DNA of 64,000 bases, taken from Craspedostauros australis. Lineage: Eukaryota. A program made the position numbers and the translations under genes. Positions within the stretch are counted from its first letter, which is position 1, and each line of letters begins with the position of its first letter. The stretch spans positions 62,001-126,000 of the forward strand of contig JALAGF010003286.1 of assembly GCA_030167865.1 (NCBI GenBank). The letters are read 5' to 3'. Below the pieces are notes generated by a model. It was given only the letters and a program-made list of their open reading frames with translations. It did no database searches and was not told the DNA's origin. Positions 11,933 through 58,836 of the stretch are shown here, one piece after another.

Positions 11933-13505
11933 CTGGATGGGTCGGATCCTGTTCTGTTGTGCTGCGCGTCCAGTACGTGCGTTGGACACAGAATTCGCAA
12001 GAACAACCGTCATCGGATCTGTTCTTTCAATGAACTTCTTGGAAGATCATGTTTCGAGTCATGTATCTTTCTGAGTCACGAACCATGGATTCCGATGACG
12101 CCATCTCGCATCATCGGCAATGATGGGACGGAGATCACCCGTCACTACCTCGCCAACAACAATTATGATTTGCCTTGACTTGGATGTGACTACTGCGGCA
12201 CATGAGGGAGCATCTTGGTCGGGGCACAATCGAATGAGTGATCGTTGGTTGGTTATTTGGTGGGATGAGCGATTGCTGATGAATGGATCCGAAATAATGT
12301 GTGCGTTGATGGAGTCTTGGTCTTGGTGCACCGAGTGGAAGCATGGCATCAGAATGGCGATTGGATGACCAGAAAGGGAGACGGAAAGCTTCTATGAATT
12401 CTATGTATGTTTGTTAAAATACCTGAAAGACATTGGGAGGATGAAAGAAAGGTGCGAAGGATCATGTTTTGAAGGGCGCCCTCGGTATTGGTAACTTGCG
12501 TTGCGCCGATTCCGAGCGGGTTAGTGGCAACATCGAATTCAGTGGCTGCGAACGAACAGAGTTGATACCATCATCATCCCTGATCCTTTCGGCATCTTGG
12601 ATGGCAACCCACTTCATTCTGTCAACGATGTTTCTTCATCTTGGATCTCTTGTGTTGTCTGTGTCCTAAGTTCTGCGCCGCTTCTGTTTCTAGGCCACAG
12701 AGCGGAAACAATCTCTGTTGCTGGTCGTAGAGACAGACGGCATGGTCGCCCATCCGTGGCAAGCCAGTGTCGTACTCGTATTCTTGCTCCTTGATCCCCG
12801 TTCGCTTGATGTTGTCTCTCGCGAAGCAATCCAAGTGAAGACCAACAGTTATCCTCGATTCCGCTTGCGCCATGGCGTAGAAAGCCATCGTCGCAAGTAC
12901 AGGACGCGTTATTGTGCATTCCACAGCCAAAGTGATCGTGCAAGAAGTGAGTTGGGAGTCATTTCGATCCATGACTGACAAAATAGCTTCTTGACGAACA
13001 GCCCATTCCATGACCAAGCGGACGATAATTCCTTCAGTATAAAAGTCTGTTGGGGTCACGAGATGTATCCGCCTGCTTCTCGTGGTTGGCCACAAGTTTC
13101 TTGATTCCACTTTCCCCCTCCAAACTGTCACAAGGAAGCACCCAAAAAGGCGAAAGAAGCACGGGATTGTTGTTGACGCCAACAGAGCAAGGCGAGCGAC
13201 GCGTTGGCTCTTCCCTGTATGTTGGCATCAAGGAGAAGTCAACGCTTGACGCAGTAATCATAGTTACCGCTTGAGCCGAAGAGGCGACGTCCTTCACCAC
13301 ACCAATAGCCACGTGCATACTTCATCTCACATGAACGCCGCCACCAACTGAGTTGCACAACCCAACACCACAACCCCTCTCTGAGAACATCTCAGCGTCA
13401 ATTGATGATTCTGCACAATCACAGGGCATCTCATTGATCATCCAACCACACCAACTGTTCTACTATTATTAGCAGCCACCAGAAAAGGCTGCAACCTATC
13501 ATACC

Positions 13506-32400: not shown

Positions 32401-34147
32401 CGCCGGAAACCACCTGGAGCGGCGTTAACCACAACGCATCGCAGTCCTTGAAAGTGGAACGGCTCTACCTCCGTGAGTCCTTTTCACTCTTGTGCGTCTT
32501 CTACTCTGTGTGCGACTATTTGCACTCTGCGAACCTTTTCAATCCCATTCTGTTCTGTTACGGTAGCGCTTCCAGCTGGCTTGGTGGTGCATGCTGTGCG
32601 TTTCATTTTACATTCGTTTGCGTGAAAACGAAGGAGACAGCGATCGACTTCCCACATCATCATCTACCAAGTGCTCACATCATCTCTCATCCTCGCTGCT
32701 GCTACTGCGACTGCTATTGCCTCCTAATACATGTCAATTTCTTTCCACACTCTGCTCACCCACACCCTGGCGCACAGCCGGACAAGAGCTGCTCGGTCAT
32801 CTCCCGGATGAGTTGACGCTCCTCAGCGATTTAACGCATCTGCTGCTCCCGCATAATTCCATCCAAGGTACCTTGCCTCCTGCATACGGCGACAGCAGCA
32901 AATTCCCTCTGGTCGCATTAGACCTCCGTGACAACATGATCATTGGAACCCGTGAGTCGAAGCATGTCCTGCCGATGATTGCTGGTTGCTGGTTGCAGCT
33001 CATGGTGCAGCTCATGGTGCAAACACAACTACTCTACCATACGCTATTGCACATTTTCGCATGCTCTTTGGAATACTATTCGTTCGATGTGTGACATCAA
33101 CCACTACTCGGATCTGCTCACTAACATTTCCTACTCTGATCATCACCTTTACGCGTAACGTGTCCTCATTTTTCGTACACCATCTCTCTCACAACCTGAA
33201 CAGTTGCGGACGGCTTCTTCGCCAATTCGCAGACCTTGGAGAAGCTGAATCTTGGAGTCAACATGCTTGTGGGCCGCTTGCCGAGCAGTATCTTCACAAC
33301 GCAAAGTTTGCAGTCTCTCAATCTCACTCACAACAATCTGACTGATGAGGTACCTGTTGAGATTTCGTATCTTGCATCGCTGACGTCGCTGGATTTATCT
33401 TACAACTTGTGGCGCGGGGAAGTTCCAACTGAACTTGGAGTGCTGAGCAGGCTGGAACATCTCATTGTCGGCGGCTACAGAGGAATCACAGGGCAACTTC
33501 CGACGGAGATCGGAAAGCTGACACGCTTGCGGTTGTTGGATATCTCCAACACGAAAATGAGGGGGAAGCTACCAGCCGAGATCGGGAACCTGTTACGCTT
33601 GCAATCTCTGGATGTGTCCAACTCAGAGATGACGGAACAAGTGCCGTCAGAGTACGGCCTGCTCTCCAATCTTCAGTTTCTGAACATGGCGCAGAACAAG
33701 CTCGCAGGGTCCATTCCCACAACCTTGGGTCTCTTGACGGAGTTGGTGGATCTGCGGCTCAATGGCAACAACCTCATCGGTCCGATACCAACAGAGTTTG
33801 GCCTACTGACAGATCTAGAAGTGCTGCACATGCAAGCAAACGAGCTCAACGGGATAATTGGGGCAGAGCTCGGCTTGATGACCAGCCTGATGGATTTGCG
33901 GTTGAATCACAACAATTTCAATGGCACATTGCCAATATCTTTCGTCCTGCTCGGGGACTTGAGAGTTGCGTTATTCCATGCCAATTCCATTGTCGGTCCG
34001 ATCCCAACCGGCGTCTGTTCAATCCTGATATTGGAGCAGTTCATGACGGACTGTAATTCACAACCACCCACCGTGGATTGCAGTTGCTGCACGCAATGCT
34101 GCGTCCCGCAGGTATTTGACTCGTGTCCAGTGGACTTTGATTTCTGA
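29491..34147 (+). CDS. Single-pass membrane LRR protein with two tandem cap+LRR modules; exons 29491-30991, 31243-32472, 32778-32951, 33204-34147
   Basis: Acidic N-terminus, TM VFLGGFVAGVLALGIVLAAVF, cap domain twice (AADWI..D...QRYLMAFFY / AMAWI..D...QRFVLAAFY), more than 20 LRRs, Cys-rich C-caps (CTCCTVC, CSCCTQC); three phase-1 GT-AG introns. Confidence 0.88.
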
Positions 34148-37968: not shown

Positions 37969-38459
37969 AAGTGGGAGCAGACGGTGGCGACAACAAATGC
38001 AAACGTGATGAAACGTGGAAGGAACCGTGGCAAGGAAGCCGAGACAGCGATGCATGGACACAACGAGTATCGAATCCGAAGTTGCTCGTGAATCAACGAT
38101 GGTTTACTCGGGAATGAAAACGGCGCCAAAAATGAGGAAAATACTCTCTTTGATTCGTTCGACTACATGCGAATGACCCTCGTTCCGAACATCAAGAACG
38201 AACGATCGGAACAACACAGCCACGCGAGAGGCATCAAGGGGTGAATGCGGGTGCTTCCGATCCATGGACGCACTGCGCAATTCATCGCGTTGTTGATGGC
38301 CGATAGGACGCCCCTTCCAAAGAGGCACACTGATCCGAGGTATCTGCATTTGCATTCACTGCTGCATCTGCATCTGCACGTTCGTCGTTGACGATATCAG
38401 CGATAACAGCAGCAACAGCAGCAACAACGGAAGTAGAAGCCAAAACGACAACGACAACC

Positions 38460-40151
38460 ATGGTCTCCCAGCCAGGCATCGGCAGCACCAGCACGAACGC
38501 AAATCCTCACGAGAGGACTGGTCAGCACATCCGATCATCTTTGGAGCAGGAGGCATCGGATGATCGCGTTGCCGCGTATCATTCCACCGCCGATCATCAT
38601 GGAGGCGATCACGAGAGCGATGGAGGCGATGGCATGGACAGACAGCCGAGCATCCGACGCAGACAACCCGGGATCAAACCCAAGCAGCTGCTGGCGCTGT
38701 TCTTCGTGTTGGGACTCCTCAATAACGCCTCCTACGTAATCATGATCGCGTGCGCCAAGAGCATCAGCGAGGGCGGGACGGCGTTGGTCTTCATCGCCAA
38801 CGTCATGCCATCCCTCCTCGTCAAGCTCAGTGCGCCCTACTGGTTCGACCGCGTGTCCTACCAAACACGTTTGATGGCAGCCACCGTCTCCATGGTTGCC
38901 TCCTTCACGTTGGTTGCTGTTGGTGCGACCATCAGCATACCCTCCGCGGCGTTGCAAATGCAGCTGCTGGGGGTGGCCCTCGCCAGTCTGCAATGCGGGC
39001 TGGGCGAAGCCTCGGCGCTGGCGTTGGCCGGTCGATTTGACTCCTACTTAGGCGCGGCACAGTCGCCAGCATCACCTTCCACGGTCGAAGCCGATCCTGC
39101 TGAGAGCTCCACCGGATTCTGCCTCACGGGCTTCTCCTCGGGCACAGGACTGGCAGGAGTGTTCGGATTTCTGTGGAAGTTCGTCTTCAGCGATTTCTTG
39201 GGCTGGTCCCTTTCGGCAACGCTATGGAGCGCAATGACTCTTGCGGTGGGGTATTGCCTATCCTCGTACCAATTGGTTCGGTTGGATCATCGTCTCAGTG
39301 AAGGTGTGGGGACGGTCTCGGTAACGGTGCCCGGGGGAGACGCCAGCATTCACATCAGCGACGGCGGCGACATTGATAGTGACTGCGATGACCATGTCGT
39401 CACCATCGGTTCGGATGATGTCAACATTGATGAGATCCGTCCTCTCCATGCATCGTCACATTCCACAGCAACTGCCACGCAGATGACAGCGACGACGTCC
39501 ACGGCGGCGACTTCCAGGCAGAACAGCGCGTCGCACGACACAATGGCAGTGCGAACAACGACGGAAGTCTCTGACATGGACGCAATGCAAAGATTCCGAC
39601 TATTCCTCTCGCTGTGGCCCTACATGATCCCGCTCTTTCTTGTCTACGTCGCCGAGTACTCCTTGCAGGCAGGGACCTGGACTGCCATCGGCTTTCCAGT
39701 CACGAACGTGGCTTCCCGCGATCGCTTCTTCGAGTACGGCAACTGGATGTACCAGGCCGGTGTCTTCGTTTCGCGATCGTCCGGCACCATCTTCACGGCT
39801 TCGATGTTCTCCCTGTGGCTGATGCCGCTCCTGCAAGTTCTCAACGTCTTTCTCTTTGGGTGGTACGCCATGCACCAAAGTGACAGCATGTCCCAAGCGA
39901 TGCTCCTCCCCGCTTGCTTTTACGTGGGATTGTTGGGTGGTGGTGTCTACATCCATGGCTACAAACGGATTTGCATAGACCTCCCGCCGCAGCATCGTGA
40001 ATTCGCGTTAGCAGCTACCAGCGTCGCCGAAGGCGTCGGCACATTGATGGCGGATCTGTTGGGACTGGTTATTCAGGGCTGTTTGTACCAATGGAATCAT
40101 CTGGAGGGTGCTCTCGTGGCATGCCCCGCACACTTTGACGTGAGCAACTGA
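38460..40151 (+). CDS. CLN3: CLN3/battenin (BTN1) lysosomal/vacuolar membrane protein
   Basis: FFVLGLLNNASYVIM, GLGE, FSSGTGLAG, YMIPLFLVYVAEY, YQAGVFVSRSS, GLLGG, REFAL; many TM segments. Confidence 0.9.
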   Translation: MVSQPGIGSTSTNANPHERTGQHIRSSLEQEASDDRVAAYHSTADHHGGDHESDGGDGMDRQPSIRRRQPGIKPKQLLALFFVLGLLNNASYVIMIACAKSISEGGTALVFIANVMPSLLVKLSAPYWFDRVSYQTRLMAATVSMVASFTLVAVGATISIPSAALQMQLLGVALASLQCGLGEASALALAGRFDSYLGAAQSPASPSTVEADPAESSTGFCLTGFSSGTGLAGVFGFLWKFVFSDFLGWSLSATLWSAMTLAVGYCLSSYQLVRLDHRLSEGVGTVSVTVPGGDASIHISDGGDIDSDCDDHVVTIGSDDVNIDEIRPLHASSHSTATATQMTATTSTAATSRQNSASHDTMAVRTTTEVSDMDAMQRFRLFLSLWPYMIPLFLVYVAEYSLQAGTWTAIGFPVTNVASRDRFFEYGNWMYQAGVFVSRSSGTIFTASMFSLWLMPLLQVLNVFLFGWYAMHQSDSMSQAMLLPACFYVGLLGGGVYIHGYKRICIDLPPQHREFALAATSVAEGVGTLMADLLGLVIQGCLYQWNHLEGALVACPAHFDVSN

Positions 40152-40481: not shown

Positions 40482-41669
40482 TCAACTGAGCGCCAATGTT
40501 CTGATACGTCCTTCGATGATCTCAGCGTTGTGGATCTCGAATTCCATGCAAAATTCTTCATTTTCACGAAGCTGTAGCTTCTTCACGGCTTGCCCGTCCC
40601 GGAAAATGATGGTCAGCAGCTTGCTGCGATGAGGACACGGGTCCCCGAACAACCGAATATACCAATATCTGAGCGTGGCGGGTTGGTATTCGTTGATTGT
40701 TCCGTGCGCTGTCGTTGCCAATCGCGGTGGGAGGAGCTTCAGCTTTCCGTTATTGTCGGCAATCATCTTTCTCAGAACATGAGTAACATCGAAGACATGA
40801 GGAGTACTGCCGAATGATGCGCGTAGCAACTTTGTTGTTGCGCCCTTCTTCGTTCCTGCTGAGCAGTTTGGAGGTTCCAAGCAAACCTCAGACTGACCTG
40901 TCTCGTTGAAATGAGGAGACAAACGAATTGCGCCAGAATATGCTTCAATCAACGCCTTCACCATCTCGTACTCGCCTGGATGGTACAGCTTGGCCCAAAA
41001 CATCACTCCACTGTTTCCCGCTTCAATACGCCTTGGCCGAAGCTTGATTTTCCGACAGTACTTGAAGACGGTTCCCATCACCTTTGTACCAAGTGCAATT
41101 CGATGTTCACGTGACATGTGAGCCAATCCCAATTCTCGAAGGATGTCCGGGACCGTGTACGTTCTGCACAAGCGATGCAGATCACGGCCGGCCTGGGCGC
41201 AGTTCAAGACGTCTTTCATGCTCAAAAAGGAACGAATTCCATTTTCCCTGACAAAGAGTTGAGGACCAACAGTACCGCGATCAAAGAAGTTGCTGAAGGG
41301 ACCAATGATTGTTTTCTTTGGCTGATTTCTCTTGGGGCGAACAGGTACGGAGAGCTGTGCTGGACTGCATGATGTACGCAGCGGCGTGATTCGTTTACCT
41401 TGACCTCGACCTCCACCTCGACCCCGTCCTTTACCCCGACTTTGGCTCCGACCACGGCCAGGAACTTGCGCACGGCCCCGTCCACGACCTCTGCCTCGAC
41501 CACCACCTCGACCACGACCTCGACCACCACCTCGACCACGACCTCGACCACCACCTCGACCACGACCTCGACCCTGAGTTTGACCAGGCTGACGACCAGC
41601 TGTGCCTGACACCGTTGGTGGTACCGCTGGTGTATCGGATGCGGGTGTACTGTTAGGTGTCATTTCCAT
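40482..41669 (-). CDS. Uncharacterised protein: RGG/RG repeat, F-box-like segment, C-terminal DUF3395-like (DPCP) domain
   Basis: Intronless ORF; GRGRGGGR repeats; SFLSMKDVLNCAQAGRDLHRLC; ASFG...DVT..L...FGDPCP..SKLL.I. Start codon uncertain. Confidence 0.6.
   Translation of the reverse strand: MEMTPNSTPASDTPAVPPTVSGTAGRQPGQTQGRGRGRGGGRGRGRGGGRGRGRGGGRGRGRGRGRAQVPGRGRSQSRGKGRGRGGGRGQGKRITPLRTSCSPAQLSVPVRPKRNQPKKTIIGPFSNFFDRGTVGPQLFVRENGIRSFLSMKDVLNCAQAGRDLHRLCRTYTVPDILRELGLAHMSREHRIALGTKVMGTVFKYCRKIKLRPRRIEAGNSGVMFWAKLYHPGEYEMVKALIEAYSGAIRLSPHFNETGQSEVCLEPPNCSAGTKKGATTKLLRASFGSTPHVFDVTHVLRKMIADNNGKLKLLPPRLATTAHGTINEYQPATLRYWYIRLFGDPCPHRSKLLTIIFRDGQAVKKLQLRENEEFCMEFEIHNAEIIEGRIRTLALS
41497..41568 (-). 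repeat. Three perfect 24-nt tandem copies encoding GRGRGGGR
   Basis: Unit cgaccaccacctcgaccacgacct x3 on the + strand. Confidence 0.9.
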
Positions 41670-42151
41670 GTTGAATACTCTTGACTTGCGAGTGTGGAAG
41701 GTTGTGAAGTGCTGTTGCCTCTCTGTGATTGCTGCACAATATCCAAGGGACAATGAGAGCTTACCAACACCACGGCTCTTGATCGTTGCCATTTTCAGGT
41801 TTTCTTGTAACCACTCCTCCAACAGAGAGATGTGTGGATATTGAACGCTTCAAGCTGTCGGACCTACGTACATTTCCTACCGGAATGAATTTTCTTGGTT
41901 TGGGTGCTTCGCATGAGCCCCATGGAAGAAGGTTGCCTCCGGATGCGCAGCGATGAAGCAAAAATCGTCTCGAAGTGTTGGCACTCTCTGGAGTTTCTCT
42001 TCATCACATATATATACACACACACACACGCAGTGCTGAGAAAGCGTTTGGACGTGTGGTCGAAAATGTTGGCAGGTCTATTGTGCATACGTGTATGTAT
42101 GGCACGATCTAATCAATGCACTCGTACACGTGTGATGTACCGTTCCAAAAA

Positions 42152-45100
42152 TCACTGCAATCTCTGGAGAAGGTCAACAAGGCTCTCCGGTGACATGGCC
42201 TTGGAACGCTTGATGATTCGTTCGGGGATCCCTTGTCCCAATTCAATGTACAGATCCTTGAGTGTCTTCTTGTCCTGCGAATCGAAGAGTGTCACGAATT
42301 CCTGCAGCGTGCATCTCGCGTCCGTCAGCTTGTTCAGGGTGTGGTATCCGAACAGCTTGACGGTGTGGTCGTAATCCAGCCGTTTGATCGTGAACGTATC
42401 CTCCATCCACCTCGACGATCTGCGGACGTTTGACTTCTTCTTGCCATCCACGGGTTGCTGGTTGATGAGGATGGCTTTTGTGATGGTTGCACCCGCATTC
42501 TGTTGGAACAGATCGCCCAGGAAATCTGTCAAGATGGGAGAGTTGATGTCAACACCTGCCATGTCCACAACGATGAGATTCTTGCGACCAGCCAAGGCCC
42601 GTTGCGATCGTTCCAACAGCTTGGCCTCATCAACGACCTCATCCACGCCGGTGGCCTGTTGTAGATCTGCCTTCGACTCGCCATCAGATGCAATGCTGGA
42701 AGATGTGGCGCGAGCAAGGCGGAATCGAAGGAGATCCTTGATGTCCACCCAAGGATCGTTGTAGTAGGTGTCGGGCGAGTCTTCGCCACTCAGCCAAATC
42801 ACGTTGCCCAGCGTCATATCTTTGCGTCTCCAAAGCATGTATCTACAGGCCGCGGCCACGAAGGAGCTCTTGCCAATGCCAGATCGTTTGGCTTGCACCT
42901 TGACGACGTCGTTGTTCTTGATCGCGCGGATCAAGTCGTACAGCTCCTTCTCCCGCCCGACGAAGTGATTGACCTCGACCGGGATTCGCGGGTCGTTCAA
43001 ACCGCGGATCGAAACCTGGAACTTCCATGCTGGGCACTCAGCTGTGAAGAAGACGTCTGAGTTGCTGTCCCTCGAGAGCAAATGGTACTTCGACGCTTCC
43101 TGCTGGGCCCCTTCCAACGTCCCTGTGGCAACTTCATTCGTTGCCACCTGGAATGCTTCTTTCACCGTCTTGCCAAGTGCCAACTCGCGATAAAACCGCC
43201 CGGCGAATTTGATGGAGCTGCCGTCGTGCAGACCGTAATCCTGCTTGCAACATATCACGTGCGGCACGCCAGCCTGGAAGATGGCCTCAGCGCATTGCTG
43301 CGAGTTGCAAGCGGACAAGAACACCAGATCGAGACGAGCGTTGTTCTCTCGGCCCAATGTCTTCTCGATCTCTGCCTTGAACTTGGGGACGTAGATCTTG
43401 TGGATCCCACCGTTGCCATCCTCGAGCGCGAGGTACTCCGGATCGCCGTGGCATGAGAGATGCAGTATCCTGCCCCTCCCTTCGCTCAAGAATTCGCAGA
43501 TGCGGTTCCACGTCGCTGGTTCGTACGAGATCTCGATGTCGCCGGGAATATCGGACTGCGCGAGCGCATTGTCGAGAGCCTCTCGTTCGCCCTTGCAGTT
43601 CAGCAACGGAAGCTGCTCCATCTCCTTGCTCTCTTCGTTGCGATACACGAGTGGCTGGGCTTGGAACACGAACAGACGATCGAACTTGCCAGTGTAGTTG
43701 AGACTTTCCAGCACGATGTTCCAATCACGAGGACGACGATGCGGGTCCTTGTCCAACAACGAATTGATAAGAGTCCTGGGCCATCCCGGCTTGACGAGCG
43801 ATAGCTTCTTCTCCTTCGTGTCATCTGTCCAATCGATGAGCTGCTGCATCTCGTCATGTTCGATGTTGTCTTGAGTATCAACGTTGAATAACGTCCTCCC
43901 AGTACACAGTTGATACAGCAGAACTCCAAAGCTCCACATATCCTGTGAGAGGGATGCGCGCAGAACAGTGCCGCGATCGATTCGTCCCACCGCAGCTTCC
44001 GGAGGTATGCAGCCTGAGCTCGTGTTCTTGTCAAACGACGACTCGCGTTCTTTGATGGATACCGCGGTGTCGAGATCAATGACCGCGAAGTCATGCCCGT
44101 CCCTTGCGACGAAGTTTCTACAATCGAAACGGTACATATATGGTGGTTGTGACAATGTCCGTGTATAGTAGATTATCAGAGTGTTGCGGCGGTTGATTGA
44201 GTTGATCAAGATATAAATGAAACGAAGAGACAGTGAGTGCGCACGTACGGTCACAAGTGGATTATTCTGTCATAAGTTGCCGCAACAAGTAGAGTCTGCT
44301 CCAATCGCCAACACCAAGAGCAACCCCCGACAACCATAACTCATGGAGCAGAGTACTTGCACTCTCTCTATCCGCACTCGCGCTTGCACGAGAGGCGAGT
44401 CAAATGAATCCATGCACCGGCGGCTTCATGTTCGCCACATGCCACAACACGCAGCTGCAGTCCAAGCTTTACGTACCGTGCCTTGACGTCTCCATGCATG
44501 ATGCCTTTGGTTTCATTCAAGTACTTGAGGGACAGCGCGACGTTCTTCGCAATTGCCATGGCAGCGGGTGCATCCTTGCCGGCGATGTTTTGGGTGTCGA
44601 TGAGTTTGTGCAAATCGCCGCCGTACCCGTACTCCATGACGATGAGATGGTCGAGGGTGGCGGTGGCCTTCGTCATTTCGCCGATCCCACCAGTGCCGGG
44701 TGCCTTCAGATGAATCTTGGGATACGTCGAAAGGTGATCCGCAATGTCGATGCCGAACTTCGTGACCGCCACATGCGAGGTGTCAAAGTCGCAGCCACCC
44801 GATTTGGAATACATGGCCTTGATGGGGACGACGTACTTGCCGTCCATGCCGATGCGGCGCCTTACTTCCTGCTGGAAGACATCCTGCGATGTCATGAACT
44901 TGAGCACGACGCGCGTTTCCTTGCCTTTGCGTAATTCCGTCGCAACGATGATGATGCAGGATTCGGACACGTGCAACGGATCCTCGTCTTCTTCGATGCG
45001 ATAAGTCTCCAAGAAACGTCCAAACACCTGTCCCCACCTGCTAAGATCTTCCGACGAGGTTGATATGCGAGATCGCCTCGCAACCTCCGTCAGCGTGCGC

Positions 45101-47913
45101 CTTGATGCTGGTTTGCCACCAAAGGAAAATCTGAACGTGCGGTCGCCGCTGGTGCTCGTTGTGTTGCCGTTGCTGACCCCGCTGATGGACACTTCCTCAG
45201 CCGGCGAGGCTCGCTGATGATGAATGAGTTGAAGCAACATACTTGCGGCATCCGGAGTGTCAAAGTCCGCGAGGATCTCCAACAACGTCCAGTCGGGCCG
45301 GAATTGCAGATTCAGATCGAGGTTCATGACGTCATCCGCTCCTCCATCTTGCTGATCTTGTATGATGTGGATGAACGCTCTCAGAGACGTTGGATTGTCA
45401 AATGAAAAGAGGGGCCTCAAGCGACGCGCGTCCTTCTGGTTTTGAAGGAGGATCTTCAGTCGCTGCACAGCGTGGGATTGCTGCAGGGTCGCCCAATCTT
45501 GAGAATTGATGCATTGCGACAGCAGGATGGTGATGGGAGATGCCCCCATGTAGTTGATGGTGTCCGCCGTTTCGGGATCGGCGTTGAACATCTCGCGGAT
45601 GAATTCGGTCGTTTCAGCGGGCGACTCTACGTGCGTGCGATCTCCAGTGTTGCCGTCTTCTGTTGAATCAGAAGTGGTCGGACGATTGCCGAATTGGTAC
45701 AACTGCTCCAGCAAATTGAACATCGCCGTGTTACCTCGGTTGTCCTGCATGCTGCAGATGGCGGGTCTGCCACGCATGACTGCACGCAGAAGCGGAACCG
45801 GCGCTCGCGAAACGGCACCGAGATGCATCGGAGTTGCGCGTTGCCGGTTTGTCATCCTCGCTGTTTTATCGTCGAGCAATAGACCGATTACGTCCATGCT
45901 GGCCAAGTTCTTCATGGCAAGATGCAGCGGACAGTTCAAGTCGCGATCCAGTTGCACCTTCAGTTGCGGACCACGTCGCAGCAATCTGGCGATGACGTCT
46001 GAGGATGCACCGCATGCCACGCCGACATGCAACGCCGTCGATCCCTCAAAGTTCGTCACATCCAATTGATCGTCGCCGCTGTGATTGAGGATGGCATCCA
46101 CCACGTCCACGCTGGCATCGTGCTGCATCGCCAAGTGCAACGGGATGCTCCGGCTTGCGCTGCGCTTCATCAGCACCAAGTCAGGGAACGTGCGGATGAT
46201 GAGCTCGATGGTTTCCACAGATGCATGATGCAGCAAGGCCAGATGCAGCGCCGTCCAATGATCGTCGTTGTCCACGTCGATCTGCACCGCGTAGGGATTG
46301 TACTCCAGGAGGATGCGGATGATCGGGAACGGCGCATTGTACTCCAGGGCCCAATGCAGCGGGATCTTGCCGTCGCCATCCGGGATGGTGCAGGCCCGCG
46401 GGAAGGCGCGGATGAGAACGTGGGCAAGGTCGGGATGGTGCAGGAAGGATGCCATGAGATGAAGCGGCGATCGGTCGGACCCATCCACCACCGAGGCAAC
46501 CTGGGGATGCAGCGAGATCATGTTGAGGATGATGTCGACCGGCACCCTCTCGCGGATGCCGACGTGCAGCGGGGTTTGGCCTGCGCTGTCCTTGCGGAAC
46601 ACGGCCCTGGGGTTGTCCGCGAGGAGGGCGCGGATGGTGGAGTCGGTGCAGTGCCGCGACATGGCCAAGTGCAACCTGCTGCGTCCCGTCCCGCTAATCT
46701 CGGTCATGCGTTGCAGCATGCAATCGAAGAGTTCGTCTGGGGCATTGAACTGCTCCCCCAGATCCAACGGGGTGCGGTGTAGGAAGTCCTGGACGTGCAC
46801 GGCGTTGGGATGCGCGCGAAAGACCAAGGCGAGGGTCTCGACAGACACCGCATTCCTCATCGCGACGTGCAGCGGATGTCGTTTGTTGTTGTCCTGCTGA
46901 CTGGCGGCCTTGGGATGGTACCGGATCAGAATGTCCGTCTCTTCCGCCGACGCGCGCTTGCACATGGCTCGGTGCAAGGGATTCCAGCCCAGGGGACGGT
47001 TGGGATTCTCCGATTCCACGTCCAGCATGATGTCGTACTTCTCCAGCACGTCGCGTTCGTCGTCGTCCTTGACGTCCCTCCACCTGGCCTGCCGATTCAT
47101 CGAGTCCAGGCGCTTGTTGAGCTGTTCCGGTTCCACCCCCAGCTGGATGAGGAGGTTCTTGCGTTCGCGCGTCGTGCCGTGATTCATGATGTGATCGATG
47201 GGCGTCATGTCGTTGGCGTCCGTCTTCAGGCAGGCCCCGGGGAAGAGGTTGAAGACGCGCACCACGAGGTCGACGTTGCGGTTGTGGATCATGCAGAGAT
47301 GCAGCACCGTGAACTGGCGCAGATCAATGACCTTCGCCGCGTCTGGATTGGCCTCCAGAACGGGCAGCAGCGACTCGTACGGCGCCGCGACCTCCACGCC
47401 GATGTGCAGCGCCGTGCGGTTGAGGCTGTCCAGGTGCCACGCCGCCGATGGGTTGCTCTGCAGCAGACGGCGCACGGTGTCCTCGTTGCAGCGATGCTCC
47501 ATGGCGATGTGCAGGCGCAAGGCGCGACGTTCCCCGCCCGTCGTTTCGGGACATGCCGGCAGCAGGCAGTCGAACAAGCGCGTGGGGGCGTGGAATTGGA
47601 TTCCGATCTCGATGGGCGTGCGCTCGTAGCGTTCCTTGGCCATGAGCTCGTTGGGGTGGATCGATTCCAGGATGGCCATCATGAGCTCGGTCGTGATCAT
47701 GTTGCGCATCGCGAGATGCAGAACGTTGCGTCCCGTGCTGTCCCTGCGATTCAGCGACTCCGGATCGCCCTGCACCAGCAGGCGGAACGTCGCGACATCC
47801 GCATCGCGGATCACCGCCCTGTGCACCGGCATCAAGCCCAGATCCTCATCGGTCTCGAGTTCCGGGATGCGCTGGCTGTGCTCACGCACTGCGAGTTCGT
47901 ATGCTGACGACAT
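42152..47913 (-). CDS. 1800-aa ankyrin-repeat / protein kinase / CHAT (caspase-like) protease / P-loop NTPase fusion; exons 47913-44477, 44117-42152
   Basis: Many TPLH-type ankyrin repeats; kinase VVLK, HGDVKAR|NFV across a phase-2 intron, IDLD, PPE, DMWSFG; CHAT ILHLSCHG, LALED, VFLSACNS; FVGREKEL, SGIGKS, NLIVVD. Confidence 0.85.
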
Positions 47914-48029
47914 GACACCGATGCGCGCGTTTGGTATGCACGGTTCACAGCGACAATGTGATGAGATTGGATGAGACTGGATGAGACTGGATGGGATGTG
48001 ACCACAGTGCTCTCTTTTGCTTCCTTTCG

Positions 48030-48032
<3 letters not shown>

Positions 48033-48060
<28 letters not shown>
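48033..48060. repeat. (CT)14 microsatellite upstream of the ankyrin-kinase-CHAT gene
   Basis: Perfect CT run; accounts for RERERE in the raw ORF extension. Confidence 0.9.
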
Positions 48061-48063
<3 letters not shown>

Positions 48064-48548
48064 CCGTGGATGCGAACAGAATGAAGGAGGTGTTGTGGCT
48101 GAATGGATTCGGATTCCGTTCCGTCCTGTGCAGGTTTGGATTTTGTGCGGTCCTGTGGCTGTTCCTTCGCCACTTTGATGCCATTCGCTTTGCTCCTTGT
48201 CGAGTTTGTTTGCATCGCAGAACGCCGCAGAATCACCGTTGCCGTAATACCCGTGTCTGGACTGATTGGACCAATTGTCAGTACCTGCGACATCAAGACG
48301 ACGAGTGTTATCCACGTCTGTGTATCATTTGGAGAAGCTACTCACGAATGAGAAGTGCTTGAATCGATGGTGTTCTTTCAGGGATGCTTGAATCCATTGA
48401 GTCAATGGTATGTCTGAAACATAGACATGGTTGTTGCAGACAGACAGACGGACAGTGTCAGTCTCCTACAAACAGACAGACAATCGAGAATGCTGCCCTT
48501 TTCGACATTCAATAGAGAGCCTCAAACATGAAACCTATGCACATTACA

Positions 48549-50609
48549 TTACTCGACAACAGATGCACAACCAACTCGCGGCCCCTCCAGGGTGCTCCAA
48601 TGCGCCAAGGACTCCGCAAAGACGTCCGGATCGTCCATGGCGTGCTGCCAAAAGGCTTGATTCAAGGCATCGCCGGTCTTCTGCCACCGCCGATGGCATT
48701 GGTTGTACATGATGGCCGGGATGCCGACAGTGAGAGCGCCGTACGCGCCGAGGGCAGGGATGACGTAGGGATTGGACGCCGCGAGGGAGATCTTGGTCGT
48801 GTATCCCATCCATCCCCAGACTCCGCTAGCCGGGACGCTGACCTGGACGTGCGCGGCGGCTGCTGCCAGCGTGGATGTGGATTTGATTTGGCTGGCTGCA
48901 GTGCTTTCAAGCAACGACGCTGCCTGCAGCGTGGACCAATGCCCCGTCTTGCACCACACGGCGACGCATTCGCAGTTGGAGTAGAGGACGTGGTAGTTGG
49001 GGATGGCGGTCGGGTGCGTCAAGAGGAAATGGACTCGCGCCAGGATGAGGCCGACTGCGTCTCCCTTTTTGCTTGTGGACGTGCCAGCCCTTGACAGGAA
49101 GTGCCGTTTCCAAAACGGTGCCTCGTACTGGACCTTATGCCATGTGTTGATGTGATTGTGCTTGTCCTGATCGGAGCTGGTGATGGTGCGGATGATGCCT
49201 GGTTGCGCCATGGAGAACAGTGACTTTTGTTGCTGATCGAATTGCATTTGTTCCTGCCGTTGCTGTTCGTCCTCCTGAACCTGCTTGGTCTGCGATTGCA
49301 GATTGGAAAAGTCGGCGATTGTGACCTTGTACCTTCCTTTTGTGGCGGTTGTGGTAGCTATTGATTGCGTTTGAGTTTCAGCGACATTGGCATTGGCAGT
49401 ACCATCGGCATTGGAACTGCTTGTCTCTTCTGCGTCTTCCACATGTGATCGAAGGTTGATGGATTCGATAGAGGTCTCCTTGTCATTGTCTGCAACAGTG
49501 GGAGATGCTTGTTCTCTGTCGCGATTCGCATCGCTCTCATCCTTGCTGATTGGAGCGTTTCTGACTACATCACCGTCGCCTTTGTTGTCGATATTCGTCC
49601 CAGCATCACCGCTTACATCAGGCGCTGCACCCGATGAAGCATCATCGTTCTCGTCACATGCAATCTCCTCTTCGATATTGACGACAATCCCGTGATGCTG
49701 GAAGACGTAGGGCACACCCAGCAGGGATCTCCATTGGTAGACATGGTCACCAATCTCCAGCTGATCGAGCGGCACGGGCGGCTCTGGGATGATCTCCATG
49801 CGTTCCCATTGTGCTTCGCTGGCATCCTCGAAGACTCGCTCGCACGACGACATGATCTGCTCCTTCTGCTGTTGCTCGATCGTGACCTCGTTCGGTGGCG
49901 CATGATCCGTGTGTTCAGCGTATAGAGGATGTTGTACAAGGTCATTGTCACACGATCGCGCGTGTTCGGAAATCGCCTCATGCTGGTCCATCGAAGGAGC
50001 ATGATAAAACTGCAAAGATTGCTTGCGAGACGTCTTGGTGGCATCGAGATGCAGCACTTCGGATTCCGTCATGGAATGCGCAAAGGAGTAGGATCGCGTG
50101 GCCTGCAGGCTCAGCGATGGTCGAAAGGTAGGGTCCTCGTCTTCGGAATCGGAGGACACCACGGGCATCGGGTACATGTGATTGTGGATGCCGCTGCGTC
50201 GTGCGGGGGTCGTCATGGGTGGCTGTTGATGGCGTTGTGGCGCAGACTGTCCTCGAGGATCGTACTGTGCTGCTCGTTGCAGGAGGAATGCCTGGATGCT
50301 GTTGTCGCTGCCCTGCTGATTTCCACGATGATGCCGATTGCTGCCTCCGCCATCCGCAACGCCTCGATGGTGCAATGCTGCGCTGGATGTGTCAGGCCGC
50401 GTGCTGCCTCCGAACTTCACGAAGCCAAATCCGAAGCCTCCACGGTTACTCTCGTTATTGTTTGCACGCCCATCGTTGCCATCGCTATCGAAGGAACCAT
50501 CATCGCTGCCATCCGCATTGCCACCATCAATGGTGATGTCAATCAAGGACGATGAAACGTCATTGACCGAAGCAACCGGAGCCATCGTTTGCCGTGTCAG
50601 CAACGCCAT
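48549..50609 (-). CDS. LRAT/NC-domain (permuted NlpC/P60) acyltransferase/phospholipase-like protein
   Basis: GDHVYQW...FQHHGIV and YHVLYSNCECVAVWCKTG, hydrophobic C-terminal segment; long low-complexity N-terminus and insert. Confidence 0.85.
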   Translation of the reverse strand: MALLTRQTMAPVASVNDVSSSLIDITIDGGNADGSDDGSFDSDGNDGRANNNESNRGGFGFGFVKFGGSTRPDTSSAALHHRGVADGGGSNRHHRGNQQGSDNSIQAFLLQRAAQYDPRGQSAPQRHQQPPMTTPARRSGIHNHMYPMPVVSSDSEDEDPTFRPSLSLQATRSYSFAHSMTESEVLHLDATKTSRKQSLQFYHAPSMDQHEAISEHARSCDNDLVQHPLYAEHTDHAPPNEVTIEQQQKEQIMSSCERVFEDASEAQWERMEIIPEPPVPLDQLEIGDHVYQWRSLLGVPYVFQHHGIVVNIEEEIACDENDDASSGAAPDVSGDAGTNIDNKGDGDVVRNAPISKDESDANRDREQASPTVADNDKETSIESINLRSHVEDAEETSSSNADGTANANVAETQTQSIATTTATKGRYKVTIADFSNLQSQTKQVQEDEQQRQEQMQFDQQQKSLFSMAQPGIIRTITSSDQDKHNHINTWHKVQYEAPFWKRHFLSRAGTSTSKKGDAVGLILARVHFLLTHPTAIPNYHVLYSNCECVAVWCKTGHWSTLQAASLLESTAASQIKSTSTLAAAAAHVQVSVPASGVWGWMGYTTKISLAASNPYVIPALGAYGALTVGIPAIMYNQCHRRWQKTGDALNQAFWQHAMDDPDVFAESLAHWSTLEGPRVGCASVVE

Positions 50610-51274
50610 GATACTACAGAGAGAGTATGGCCTCAACAGATAGATGTCACGTATTGGAGTATGGTGTGATCGTGTTGTGTACGACAGAATGGAATGTCGA
50701 GTATGGTGCCAAATGTGATGCGTGGAACGACCAAGATGGATGATGCCAAACCATGGCGATGCAGAAGCAACTTCGGTCCCACAGAACGTGGCTCTTCAAT
50801 TGCCTGCCTTCGTGGGTTTCGTTGGTCCATGTGCAACAGCAATTCGCTTCGTTTGTTTTTGTCACGCTGTTTGCTTCCGCCAAATTTGAATTGTTTCGTA
50901 TTTGGGTCTAACGAAGTGCATTTTGAAAGTATCCGTGACTGAGTGAATCATGCGCTCGGATCTGACTCATCTTTCGCCGTCGTCGATTTCGTTGTGCTTC
51001 ATCGTGTGCGATGAGAACTGTGGAACCAACATCGAAAGTGCTGTTCATCAGGCCGCCCACGACGATGATGACGATGATGATGGTGATGGTGATGACGGCA
51101 ACGTCGTTCATGTGTGCATTCCTTGCAACTGACGAATCCATTGCGCCCCCATCGTGAACAGAGTACCATGCAAATACGATTGCTCCCTTTGCTCGTTCCA
51201 TTCCGTCACGTTCTCATTGTTCATCCATCCATCACAACCATCACAACCATCACAACCAACTCAATTCAGCAACC

Positions 51275-56223: not shown

Positions 56224-58836
56224 ATGTCAAGCAACGAACCGACCATGGCGGACCTCGAAAAAGGGCCACCTTCCAGCCGCAACAACGGCGATACGGAGCA
56301 GCCTCCACACAGTATCCCCCATGCTCAGGAACCACCTCATCGCACCAGTGTCACAGCCAAAAGAGCGGAGGCAAACGGTGGAGTAATGGTTGAACTGGCT
56401 CCCGAAGAGTTCACCACCGAGTACAAGCCCAGAACAAGCACGTGGAAAACGACGCTGAGGAAATACGGCGACAACATCGAGCCGTTCGCGACAGCCTCTG
56501 GTGCCCATTCTATTGACTACATGGCAGGACAGATGTGGAGCGCCAGAGCCAAATGGTACGGCAAAGACGAGACGGAGGCAACAGCCGCAAACCCCTCAGT
56601 CAAGGATTGGGAACTGTTTTTCCGGCGAGTTCTCAATGGGCGACACACGCAGTACGGCCCGATGAGTCTCCCGTCCGACGACCCAAGGCGCAAGCGAGTG
56701 TGCATGGCGATCATGCGGATGGCGTCCACCGATCCACGGAAAGTCTTCCAGGTCAAGCCAAGTGGGGGCGTCAGCTCCAGATCCAGGCCAGCCAGAGCTT
56801 GGGAGGCAGCGCGTAGGGTGCTGGGCACCAACTACGACGTGGGAACGGCCCCAGATCTCTCCGTCACAAGCCTTACTGACAGTGAGGATGAAGAACGGGA
56901 CCCAGACAACGTGCCAAAGCTGCCAGTCATGGCAGGCCAAGATGCATCCAAAGGATCCCCAGGCGGCCCCAACCCGGCCAAACGGTCCAAGATCTCGAAA
57001 TCTCCGAATCGCAGCACATCAGTGCTGGGCACAAGCACCAACAGATTCGCGGCACTAGCGGGCGAAGAGCCAGAAACGCAGCCGGAGCCAACCAGTGACG
57101 TGCCAATGCAACTGAACGATGAAGGCTCCAAACAACCCCCGCAACCAGCGGCGCACGCACCAACAGCCCCTGCCCCAAGCGGCAGCCGGAAGACGGCAGC
57201 ACGACGCGCAGGCGTCACGTTCAGCCAGGTGGCCTCCACAATTGCCATGGACGACCAGTCCTCGGAATCCGACACAAGCCAAATCCTGATCGGGCTGCCC
57301 AGCCTCCAGCACACCACCAGGTTCATGTTCAAGATCAAGGCTGACCAAACTGAGCCTGACACCACCAAAGCACTCCGTGACAGAATTGTGGCATGGTTCC
57401 GGCAGGTCAGAATTGTTGATCCATCGGCCATCATCCTGCCGTGGAAAGATACACTCGACGAGCGTCGGTACATCCAGCACGTGGGTCAAATCCCAGTGGA
57501 ACTACAGGATCTCCGCGTGTTCTTCAAAGGCATTCGAGCATCCACGATGGACAGTGGCCTGGCATATACCAACGTCAGAATCACAACAGACATGCACCCC
57601 ACCAACATCACTGCGGAAAGAGATGCGGAGATGAATCCGTACTACTACAAGCACCAGGAAGGACTGTACATCAGCATGCTACAGGTCGAGAGTACCAAGG
57701 AGATCGGGTTCCTGCTATATTCTGGAGGCTTCAACGATGTCAAGGGCACCATGGAGCTACTCAACCGCGAGTTCCGCAGACGCCACAAGAACACCAGAGT
57801 CGGCGGGAAGCTCAAAAACATAGTCATGGTGTGCGACAGCACAAGAGAAGCCTACAAGAACAGCGGCAAGCATTGGACGATGCAGCCCTGGCGTGCTATC
57901 AAGGTCGAAACGGAGAGTTCGCAAGCAGCCATCGCGGTGGAGCGAATGTGTGCGCTCCTCAACGAAGACGACAACCGGCCAGCAGGGCTCCGCCTCCGGT
58001 TCCTTCCGGAAGCCAGGTACGAGCAGATGACGGAGAAGAAGCGACGGCACCGTACAAACCTGGTGCAAAAACATCAGGCAGTGCTGTCGAGTCTCAAGTA
58101 CGTGGACACGGCGGGGGTCACCAAGCTGGACGACCCAGTTCATGGGGACAACCGGGAGCACGTCACGCTCCGGTCCCATATAATGAGCATGCGGGATGAT
58201 CAAGGACGGCCGATCTTTCAAAGCCTTGACATGGCACGTGCACATGACGACCAGCTCATTGGCCACGTGTTTGAGGAGAACATGGCCCAAGCCTCTGCCA
58301 TCATGAGCCTCCTGCCAGCCGTTGCGCGCATTCAGCTGGGCACCAAGACAGAGAAGTGGTTCAGCGTCGATGCGTGGCATGCAAATCTCAACGTCACGTA
58401 TGACAGCACGACTAAAGAATACAATGCGCCAGACCACAGCAACCTCGAGCACCTCCTTGAGGAGGAGTTTCCGGCGAGTGTGGTCATCACCAATCTACCA
58501 CCAGACCTTGCCTCCGTGGAGAATCACCGACCGGCAGCGCTCGACTACAGAAGCCTGTTTGGTTCAGGAACTACGGTGGGATCCCACATGACCATGAACT
58601 CCGCAGTGACAGGAGTTCCCGGCTCAGGCGACGCAGCGTCCATCGCGACAACAGACTCCGAGAAACGCAGGGAGGCCACTAGAGCAGCGGCGCGAGAGCA
58701 GGAACGACAAAGAAAGGAGTCCCTCAACCAGGCCAGGCTCGAAATTCAGCGCGCGGAGATCGACAAGCTACGCAAGGAGCTCGACGCCCAGCGCAGCAAC
58801 GCCAACCCCGGGGCCGGGGCTCTCCCGCAATGTTAG
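56224..58836 (+). CDS. Retrotransposon ORF1 protein (870 aa) with C-terminal coiled-coil-like segment
   Basis: Long intronless ORF immediately upstream of the pol ORF; REQERQRKESLNQARLEIQRAEIDKLRKELD near the C-terminus. Confidence 0.8.
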   Translation: MSSNEPTMADLEKGPPSSRNNGDTEQPPHSIPHAQEPPHRTSVTAKRAEANGGVMVELAPEEFTTEYKPRTSTWKTTLRKYGDNIEPFATASGAHSIDYMAGQMWSARAKWYGKDETEATAANPSVKDWELFFRRVLNGRHTQYGPMSLPSDDPRRKRVCMAIMRMASTDPRKVFQVKPSGGVSSRSRPARAWEAARRVLGTNYDVGTAPDLSVTSLTDSEDEERDPDNVPKLPVMAGQDASKGSPGGPNPAKRSKISKSPNRSTSVLGTSTNRFAALAGEEPETQPEPTSDVPMQLNDEGSKQPPQPAAHAPTAPAPSGSRKTAARRAGVTFSQVASTIAMDDQSSESDTSQILIGLPSLQHTTRFMFKIKADQTEPDTTKALRDRIVAWFRQVRIVDPSAIILPWKDTLDERRYIQHVGQIPVELQDLRVFFKGIRASTMDSGLAYTNVRITTDMHPTNITAERDAEMNPYYYKHQEGLYISMLQVESTKEIGFLLYSGGFNDVKGTMELLNREFRRRHKNTRVGGKLKNIVMVCDSTREAYKNSGKHWTMQPWRAIKVETESSQAAIAVERMCALLNEDDNRPAGLRLRFLPEARYEQMTEKKRRHRTNLVQKHQAVLSSLKYVDTAGVTKLDDPVHGDNREHVTLRSHIMSMRDDQGRPIFQSLDMARAHDDQLIGHVFEENMAQASAIMSLLPAVARIQLGTKTEKWFSVDAWHANLNVTYDSTTKEYNAPDHSNLEHLLEEEFPASVVITNLPPDLASVENHRPAALDYRSLFGSGTTVGSHMTMNSAVTGVPGSGDAASIATTDSEKRREATRAAAREQERQRKESLNQARLEIQRAEIDKLRKELDAQRSNANPGAGALPQC

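Follow-up and report, generated by a model that had tools for sequence, protein, structure and literature searches.

Organization of the locus and gene model

The minus strand of a 64,000-nt stretch of Craspedostauros australis DNA (contig JALAGF010003286.1; hereafter the window) carries, at 42152..47913, a gene predicted to encode one 1800-residue protein in which ankyrin (Ank) repeats, a helical linker, a protein kinase, a CHAT protease domain (residues 1288-1505) and a terminal nucleotide-binding oligomerization domain (NOD; residues 1511-1800) follow one another. Residue numbers refer to this joined protein, and all features of the gene lie on the minus strand. Two long open reading frames (ORFs) are arranged there head to tail, at 44368..48315 and 42152..44254 (700 aa). 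An initial annotation of the window had proposed that removal of 44118-44476 unites them into a chain of 1800 residues and rebuilds the kinase catalytic loop, HGDVKAR|N, and our analysis bore this out. Coding exon 1 (44477..47913) encodes residues 1-1145 and supplies two bases of codon 1146; the intron (44118..44476) is 359 nt long, in phase 2, and has the form GTACGT...TAG; and coding exon 2 (42152..44117) supplies the last base of codon 1146 and continues through residue 1800, with the stop at 42152-42154. The junction reads GAC GTC AAG GCA CG|GTACGT ... TTGTAG|A AAC TTC, the split codon CG|A encodes Arg1146, and the motif HGDVKARNFVA is restored. The joined coding sequence (CDS; 47913..44477 plus 44117..42152) comprises 5403 nt including the stop, which is the only one and is terminal. 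Past the preceding stop, no in-frame ATG occurs before the one at 47913. Every motif that the initial annotation had located (HGDVKARN, CHG, SAC, FVGRE, GIGKS and NLIVVD) was found in its place on the joined CDS.

The composition of the region and the homologs both support this junction. Among 44 frame-keeping GT..AG pairs in the zone, only 44476/44118 produces HGDVKARNFVA. The GC content of the intron is 0.487, compared with 0.593 and 0.548 for the exons (the GC content at third codon positions of the CDS is 0.744), and stops are present in all three frames of the intron. The Pkinase profile is split by the intron, with positions 73-126 falling in the upstream ORF and 136-252 in the downstream ORF. 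HGDVKARNFV is uninterrupted in 7 of 15 aligned kinase-bearing homolog rows, which represent four distinct clusters, and an eighth row differs by a V-to-I substitution; in homolog P0003 the sequence MHGDVKARNFVA is continuous across the position of the junction in the window gene. The joined protein aligned in a single high-scoring segment pair (HSP) with P0018 (KAL3918524.1, Bacillariaceae sp. MAG; query 26-1736, E 3e-162) and with P0163 (from the Pseudo-nitzschia delicatissima transcriptome MMETSP0327; query 639-1588, E 4e-146), and likewise in one HSP each with P0017 (query 999-1777) and P0016 (query 1002-1588). All four HSPs cross junction residue 1146. Because P0163 is derived from a transcriptome, at least one relative is known as a transcript in which a single molecule encodes the kinase, CHAT and P-loop.

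A sequencing run of uncertain kind, which is RNA only by guess, matched 0.14 of the sampled words and gave contigs at 42100-42860 and 44243-44455, with no splice joint. The first contig spans the 3' end of the gene and extends 43 nt past 42100. The second, of 213 nt at a depth of 11.5, lies wholly within the proposed intron; if the run is RNA, it could stem from intron retention or from an internal transcript, and if the run is DNA, it is meaningless. An Rfam scan of 41800-48500 returned a single chance-level microRNA match far below the gathering score, and the intron had no match. A GA/TC dinucleotide repeat (48024-48070), translated as RERERERE in the open frame, precedes the start codon by about 110-160 nt and is likely to belong to the 5' untranslated region or the promoter.

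The ankyrin array and the helical linker

The N-terminal part of the protein is occupied by two ankyrin blocks. The first (residues 29-257; 47143..47829) comprises about 7 repeats, each of some 35 residues, and the second (residues 312-741; 45691..46980) about 12-13 repeats. Both were recognized by Pfam (Ank_2, 124.2 bits; 3.2e-36 in the first block), by a PLH[LV]A-type motif with a period of 35-37 residues, and by helix pairs in an AlphaFold2 (AF2) model, from which we count about 19-20 repeats in total. The AF2 model of residues 1-1145 was built from a 10-row alignment and has a mean predicted local distance difference test (pLDDT) score of 71.0 and a predicted template modeling (pTM) score of 0.47; it places a low-confidence insert, residues 272-308, between the two blocks. 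A helical linker follows (residues 765-902; 45208..45621), with pLDDT of about 76-90 over residues 761-850 and lower values afterwards. A Pfam scan of residues 790-999 gave no match, and in the ESM Atlas the same residues gave weak leads to Ank-like clusters, below the level of reliable recognition. The modeled helices suggest that the linker probably consists of degenerate Ank-like repeats.

Opposite the Ank region, where the GC content reaches 0.62, there are antisense ORFs of 259 and 374 codons (stop to stop) at 46003-47907 on the plus strand. These most likely reflect GC-rich codon usage rather than genes.

A divergent kinase with a complete catalytic core

The kinase is divided by the intron into an N-lobe through the catalytic loop (residues ~938-1146; 44477..45102) and a C-lobe (residues 1146-1290; 43685..44117). 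Pfam recognized Pkinase (PF00069) in the C-lobe ORF with 36.0 bits, against a cut-off of 31.7, and the N-lobe ORF alone scored 19.8 bits. The β3 Lys1005 (VVLKFM), the αC Glu1016, Asp1142 of the HGD motif (HGDVKARN begins at residue 1140), Asn1147 and Asp1160 of the DLD motif are all present and conserved in the subfamily, and the PPE motif, DMWSFG and the subdomain XI Arg (RRP) are likewise kept. Conservation of all catalytic residues across the subfamily argues for retained phosphotransfer. In the HGD motif, Gly and not Arg precedes the catalytic Asp, which makes this a non-RD kinase; kinases of this type are frequent in innate-immune receptor signaling. The subfamily is distant from solved kinases, as the best PDB match of the unspliced homolog P0017 was RAD53 (2e-5). 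From its sequence, the domain is predicted to be a divergent non-RD protein kinase with complete core catalytic residues. In P0005, a sister kinase of the same subfamily is fused to a TIR-type domain (PF13676).

A CHAT protease joined to a shortened STAND-type NTPase

The CHAT domain (43040..43693) scored 46.5 bits against PF12770 (cut-off 24; E 4.2e-12). Its putative catalytic dyad is formed by His1369 (codon 43448-43450), within the SCHG motif at residue 1367, and Cys1416 (codon 43307-43309), within the LSAC motif at residue 1413. In a 41-row alignment, conservation is 90% or higher in both the His-Gly and the Cys columns. In the wider count of motif conservation, which covered 190 aligned segments from 163 proteins, the His was kept in 144 of 162 segments and the Cys in 150 of 162. 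The family profile matched SAVED-CHAT (PDB 8tl0) at 3.4e-14, and Foldseek matched it at 5e-14. The AF2 model of residues 1286-1800, which covers CHAT and the NOD, has a mean pLDDT of 85.7 and a pTM of 0.87, and all superposition Z scores were obtained via this model. Model residues 3-220 superposed on SAVED-CHAT (8tl0_C) with a Z score of 25.9, a root-mean-square deviation of 2.2 Å over 200 aligned residues and 27% identity. The Z score was 15.1 for gingipain RgpB and DdvA, and 13-14 for caspases-3, -6 and -7. PADLOC and NCBIfam scans returned weak kinase and SAVED_CHAT matches and nothing stronger. These data predict a caspase-fold CHAT cysteine protease with an intact His/Cys dyad.

The last domain of the chain (42155..43024) has the motifs of a P-loop NTPase of the STAND (signal transduction ATPases with numerous domains) type: FVGRE at residue 1531 (42950-42964), the Walker A motif GIGKS at residue 1559 (Lys1562; 42866-42880), the Walker B motif NLIVVD at residue 1659 (Asp1664; 42563-42580) and the GxP motif, GQGIP, at residue 1773 (42224-42238). 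The GxP motif lies in helical domain 1 (HD1) and defines the STAND class. In the family, the FxGR motif keeps its Gly in 142 and its Arg in 144 of 155 segments, the Walker A Gly is kept in 151 of 154 and the Walker B Asp in 28 of 35, and both the Gly and the Pro of the GxP motif are invariant (34/34 each). The family profile matched the NB-ARC domains of the plant proteins Roq1 (1.9e-6), Sr35 (1.1e-5), ADR2 (1.5e-5) and MLA13 (3e-5), as well as Apaf-1 (1.1e-3), the STAND proteins PH0952 and AfsR, and DARK. Homologs that score above the curated NACHT, NB-ARC, nSTAND1 or AAA_16 cut-offs were found in two sets (6 of 31 and 4 of 18). Model residues 226-515 superposed on Apaf-1 (Z 14.7), CED-4 (14.6), NRC2 (14.6), ZAR1 (14.0) and Sr35 (13.7), with NRC3 and NRC4 within 14.0-14.7. 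The aligned range of the Apaf-1 chain, residues 108-343, is what we take to be the nucleotide-binding domain (NBD) plus HD1.

The chain ends at this point. Among the 29 homologs that align within 40 residues of the query C-terminus, 9 end no more than 25 residues from it, including the complete transcript ORF P0001, so that the stop after HD1 is a family trait and not an accident of annotation. The motifs and the model together thus identify the terminal NTPase as a predicted shortened STAND-type NOD consisting of NBD and HD1 only. The pTM of 0.87 suggests a defined packing of CHAT against the NOD, which could be a resting state.

The results agree with most of what had been read from the DNA alone. 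The order Ank-kinase-CHAT-NTPase in one chain was recovered for all four domains by Pfam, the family profile and the AF2 models. A CHAT domain with intact His and Cys had been placed after the kinase, and its Pfam score, the conservation of the dyad and the SAVED-CHAT fold confirm that placement; a profile or structural match of 43070-43680 to CHAT, named beforehand as a test, was found by both Pfam and superposition. FVGRE, Walker A and Walker B of a P-loop NTPase had been called as the last elements of the chain, in accord with the motifs, the family profile and the fold. The corresponding test of 42450-42970 gave a divided answer, since there is a structural and a family-profile match but the query's own score against NB-ARC, NACHT and AAA-type Pfam profiles is sub-threshold. 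Overall, we are highly confident that the locus is one two-exon gene and that the four domains are what they have been called.

Domain order across the family

Searched exhaustively with HMMER, the 700-aa ORF matched 2944 representatives at E≤1e-3, 786 at E≤1e-10 and 97 at E≤1e-30; the weaker tiers include plain kinases. The CHAT-NOD module is present in 147 of the 150 listed representatives. Where the start of CHAT was aligned, more than 300 residues precede it in 67 of 143 listed representatives. A kinase precedes CHAT-NOD in at least 13 of the 147 module-bearing representatives among those listed, with P0098 as one more by Pfam, and in these kinase-CHAT-NOD proteins Ank, LRR or HA repeats stand in front. 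The N-terminal modules found by Pfam in 56 homologs were leucine-rich repeats (LRR) in at least 16, Ank in P0018 and P0124 (weakly in P0129), SPRY in P0131, HA in P0120 and weak ARM-like repeats. C-terminal additions are rare and comprise Macro (P0047, P0122), UVR and LanC-like (P0030) domains. A Pfam scan of the tails of 18 homologs detected no tetratricopeptide repeat (TPR), LRR or WD40. The TIR, Macro and LanC-like fusion partners of the relatives are typical of conflict systems.

The named close members are all diatoms: Seminavis robusta, Nitzschia inconspicua, Nitzschia sp. Nitz4, Bacillariaceae sp. MAG, Pseudo-nitzschia delicatissima, Pseudictyota dubia (twice) and Odontella aurita. Most members are metagenome or transcriptome proteins without an organism name, and the taxonomic range may therefore be wider. 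Public labels of the members are 'CHAT domain-containing', 'NB-ARC domain containing', 'expressed unknown protein' and 'serine/threonine protein kinase'. A search with the family profile among longer proteins gave 16 matches, and a Phytophthora CHAT-NACHT-TPR protein is a more distant relative.

We built two trees. The first, of 126 rows, used the segment from CHAT to Walker A and placed the query in a 35-row set (Shimodaira-Hasegawa-like approximate likelihood ratio test, SH-aLRT, 97) with the kinase-bearing P0016, P0017 and P0018, the last of which also has Ank repeats. On this tree the kinase label had to change 6 times, and well-supported branches force at least 4 of these changes; none of 500 shuffles gave a number as low. 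A single origin of the kinase fusion was rejected on this account. The second was a quick tree to which ten TPR-type rows were added. These ten rows are separated from the others by a branch with 99% SH-aLRT support, and the two named ones among them are bacterial. The Phytophthora protein nests among the eukaryote-type rows.

Likeness to known systems

The closest parallels are P0018 and P0163, which are collinear with the window protein in the order Ank, kinase (HGDVKARN), CHAT and P-loop. They are 27-33% identical to the query, carry after the PPE motif an insert that has no counterpart in the window protein, and are uncharacterized. The initial annotation knew of no characterized protein with this order. 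The order itself is not unique, because it recurs in KAL3918524.1 and the kinase-CHAT-NOD part recurs in the representatives counted above; as to characterization the statement stands, since the members are uncharacterized and none is described in the papers found.

The CHAT-NOD core resembles that of bacterial-type CHAT-STAND(AAA_16/NB-ARC)-TPR proteins, some with TIR (P0006, P0011-P0015, P0179, P0181, P0183, P0184; named sources are a Thermoanaerobaculia bacterium and Streptomyces). In these proteins a single alignable unit (profile ~30-290) runs through CHAT, the FxGR linker and the P-loop, and the effector is N-terminal of the NOD as it is here. They differ from the window protein in their C-terminal TPR sensors and in Pfam lists without Ank or kinase. 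The shared order of CHAT, FxGR and NTPase indicates that only the sensor side has moved. The description of the window protein as an inverted NLR (nucleotide-binding leucine-rich repeat receptor) thus holds in part: CHAT followed by a NOD is canonical, whereas the repeats and kinase are indeed N-terminal and the C-terminal sensor is missing.

The closest solved CHAT domain to the query is that of SAVED-CHAT (8tl0), from a type III-B CRISPR/CBASS (cyclic oligonucleotide-based antiphage signaling system) locus of Haliangium. According to the part of the source available to us, ligand-induced filament formation activates this protease, which then cleaves a second protease (10.1101/2023.06.23.546230). 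SAVED-CHAT has a SAVED sensor that binds cyclic triadenylate (cA3) and, unlike the window protein, no NTPase, kinase or Ank repeats. The NBD-HD1 fold is shared with the Apaf-1 and CED-4 apoptosomes and with NB-ARC resistosomes (NRC2/3/4, ZAR1, Sr35, Roq1) at Z 13.7-14.7 and at the level of profile similarity. In the apoptosome a NOD activates a caspase-fold protease by proximity, whereas the window protein has the protease in cis. Compared with Apaf-1, CED-4 and NLRs, the window protein has no caspase recruitment domain (CARD), coiled coil, TIR, winged helix or helical domain 2, and its NOD is followed by neither WD40 nor LRR.

Eukaryotic parallels were also found. In fungi, CHAT is an N-terminal NLR module, and proteases fused to ANK, TPR, WD40 or kinase-like domains activate gasdermins, as the accessible part of one report describes (PMC12881547). 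These fungal genes adjoin gasdermin genes, and the domain order and the shortened NOD set the window protein apart from them. The LRR-Roc-COR (ROCO) proteins of Ectocarpus have been put forward as candidate immune receptors of stramenopiles, in the portion of the source seen by us (PMC3341825). ROCO proteins have repeats N-terminal of a P-loop NTPase, as here, but they contain no protease, and in place of a STAND domain they carry a Ras-like Roc GTPase together with COR. Two ROCO proteins, LRRK2 and DAPK1, carry a kinase in the same chain.

Genomic neighborhood

The gene stands among ordinary genes. A CLN3 homologue (38334-40148, plus strand) and an ORF with an RGG/RGR-rich N-terminus and a C-terminal region of ~290 residues (40485-41849, minus strand) lie on its downstream side, the latter ~300 nt past the stop of the gene. 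The RGG-rich neighbor has no Pfam family and no usable ESM Atlas match, and nothing supports a role for it as a substrate. On the other side, an ORF at 48552-50795 (minus strand) has an LRAT-like match below the cut-off. Further away, two adjacent LRR ORFs (31149-32813 and 33200-34144, plus strand; LRR_1/LRR_4/LRR_8/LRR_14) may be exons of one gene, and a LINE-type (long interspersed nuclear element) retroelement without long terminal repeats, with endonuclease/exonuclease/phosphatase and reverse transcriptase domains, occupies 58683-63998 (plus strand) and ends two bases from the end of the window. A papain-family peptidase, an M6 peptidase and a NUDIX protein are encoded by further ORFs of the window. 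An open frame of 1364 codons at 13473-17564 (plus strand) gave no Pfam match at E≤1e-3.

A candidate switch and its alternatives

By analogy with proteins of similar domain content, the window protein could be a single-chain NLR-like switch for cell death or immunity, a reading to which we give roughly even chances. In such a switch the ankyrin array, perhaps with the kinase, would bind a trigger, which might be a foreign or a stress-modified protein. Binding would free the NOD for ATP binding and self-association, and oligomerization of the NOD would juxtapose neighboring CHAT domains and turn proteolysis on, in the manner of SAVED-CHAT filaments and the Apaf-1/CED-4 apoptosome. The activated protease would then cut downstream substrates and elicit a cell-death or defense response, while the kinase may pass on or gate the signal by phosphorylation or be part of the sensor. 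Given that there is neither a winged helix nor a C-terminal sensor, autoinhibition and sensing would have to come from the N-terminal Ank/kinase side. The context that suggests an immune-type role consists of the homology of the CHAT-FxGR-P-loop unit to its bacterial-type counterpart, the TIR-fused sister kinases, the swapped N-terminal modules with the repeated changes of the kinase label on the tree, the activation of SAVED-CHAT by oligomerization, and the control of gasdermins by fungal CHAT-NLRs and by proteases linked to repeats or kinases.

Several observations weigh against this reading. The NTPase of the query alone falls below every Pfam STAND cut-off (nSTAND1 20.8-22.1 bits against 27.1, and AAA_16 17.2 against 32.6), and Cdc6/Orc1, with a Z score of 13.5, is a near-tie with Apaf-1 in superposition on the NOD model. 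The Walker A Lys is kept in 109 of 155 family segments and is replaced in about 30% (Arg in 32 and Cys in 8), which implies that nucleotide hydrolysis may not be central in this family; the Walker B motif of the query (VVDM) has a single acidic residue. No winged helix was found after HD1, as the protein ends there (model residue 515 is the last residue), and no C-terminal repeat sensor was found, as the stop codon comes directly past HD1. The switch logic would thus be extrapolated to a NOD that does not have the parts giving canonical STAND proteins their ADP-locked autoinhibition. In the kinase, no Gly-rich loop (GxGxxG) was found; PLHVSESC stands in its place, a pattern shared with P0003 and P0005. 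The query sits on a long CHAT-NOD branch (1.1-1.45, where the median is 0.43-0.53), and the two trees place it differently; we read its position at the base of the eukaryote-type set in the quick tree (80% support) as long-branch instability. Finally, no CHAT paralog, gasdermin-like gene or other obvious substrate gene was found among the 20 other ORFs of the window that were scanned.

An alternative that we regard as unlikely, though it deserves consideration, is that the protein is a housekeeping or developmental protease-kinase scaffold, acting for example in the cell cycle, stress acclimation or the sexual cycle on a specific endogenous substrate, with no role in non-self recognition or death. 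It is a single gene in the window, with CLN3, NUDIX and papain genes for company, and the metazoan TPR-CHAT protein TTC28 is tied to cytokinesis and not to immunity in the part of the literature source consulted (PMC12314368). Such a scaffold is harder to reconcile with a CHAT-NOD module held in common with bacterial-type CHAT-STAND-TPR/TIR proteins, and with a large family that shuffles sensor-type repeats and whose sister kinases carry TIR.

Two further alternatives concern one domain each, and we consider both improbable. The first keeps the immune setting and treats the kinase as an integrated decoy or sensor surface, so that a pathogen factor binding or modifying the kinase would trigger CHAT-NOD; plant NLRs with integrated decoy domains offer a precedent. 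The missing Gly-rich loop, the distance from solved kinases and the patchy presence of the kinase on the CHAT-NOD tree (at least four forced changes), which is expected of an exchangeable add-on, favor such a sensor, while the catalytic Lys, Glu, Asp, Asn and Asp are conserved throughout the subfamily and favor a signaling role. The other, with a similarly small chance, holds that the NOD is a degenerate, nucleotide-independent module and the protein a constitutive oligomer or scaffold regulated elsewhere, for instance by phosphorylation or by recruitment through the Ank repeats. The end of the NOD after HD1, the single acidic residue of Walker B, the replacement of the Walker A Lys in 46 of 155 segments and the sub-threshold Pfam scores would fit such a module; against it, the query keeps GIGKS, the Walker B Asp and the invariant GxP motif. 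Last, a reading of the locus as two separate genes or as a decaying pseudogene, with the 'fusion' as a read-through artefact, is very remote in our judgment: the contig of the possibly-RNA run inside the proposed intron would speak for it, but it would halve the kinase domain at its catalytic loop, and it has to contend with collinear single HSPs with four homologs across the junction, 1800 open codons and intact catalytic residues.

Significance

Each domain of the protein is already known, as are a caspase-fold protease on a STAND NTPase (in bacteria and fungi) and N-terminal repeats before an NTPase (in the LRR-ROCO proteins of Ectocarpus). What is new is that repeats, a kinase, CHAT and a NOD ending at HD1 are combined, and that this combination recurs as a large diatom family. 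We found no description of this family in the full-text literature that we searched; mention in tables of genome papers or in subscription journals is possible. The papers found on CHAT domains with NLRs or NACHT in eukaryotes deal with fungi, corals and bacteria, and in the part of another source that we could consult, stramenopiles appear only with SPRY/NPCBM ubiquitin ligases (PMC8195603). The architecture is not unexpected given how these domains shuffle. It represents an alternative NLR-like build, in which the bacterial CHAT-NOD core would have been kept, the winged helix and C-terminal sensor lost, and sensors and a kinase added at the N-terminus.

Diatoms undergo regulated cell death with caspase-like protease activity. 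To our knowledge, the proteases that execute diatom death and the sensors upstream of them are unsettled. In Thalassiosira, metacaspases are activated under iron starvation and culture ageing, according to the available portion of a review on caspase homologues outside the metazoans (PMC5756287). As a bolder proposal, which we put forward tentatively and consider rather unlikely in its full extent, diatoms may have an expanded class of receptors of their own that are analogous to NLRs, in which caspase-fold CHAT is hard-wired to a minimal NBD-HD1 and the N-terminal sensors are exchangeable. Such single-chain 'apoptosomes' could be where the caspase-like activity and the regulated death of diatoms originate under attack by viruses, algicidal bacteria or parasites or under nutrient stress, and the window gene would be the Ank-kinase member of the class. 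By joining a caspase-fold protease to an NLR-type NTPase and to sensor-like repeats, the family offers concrete candidate genes for the diatom cell-death pathway and for algal innate immunity.

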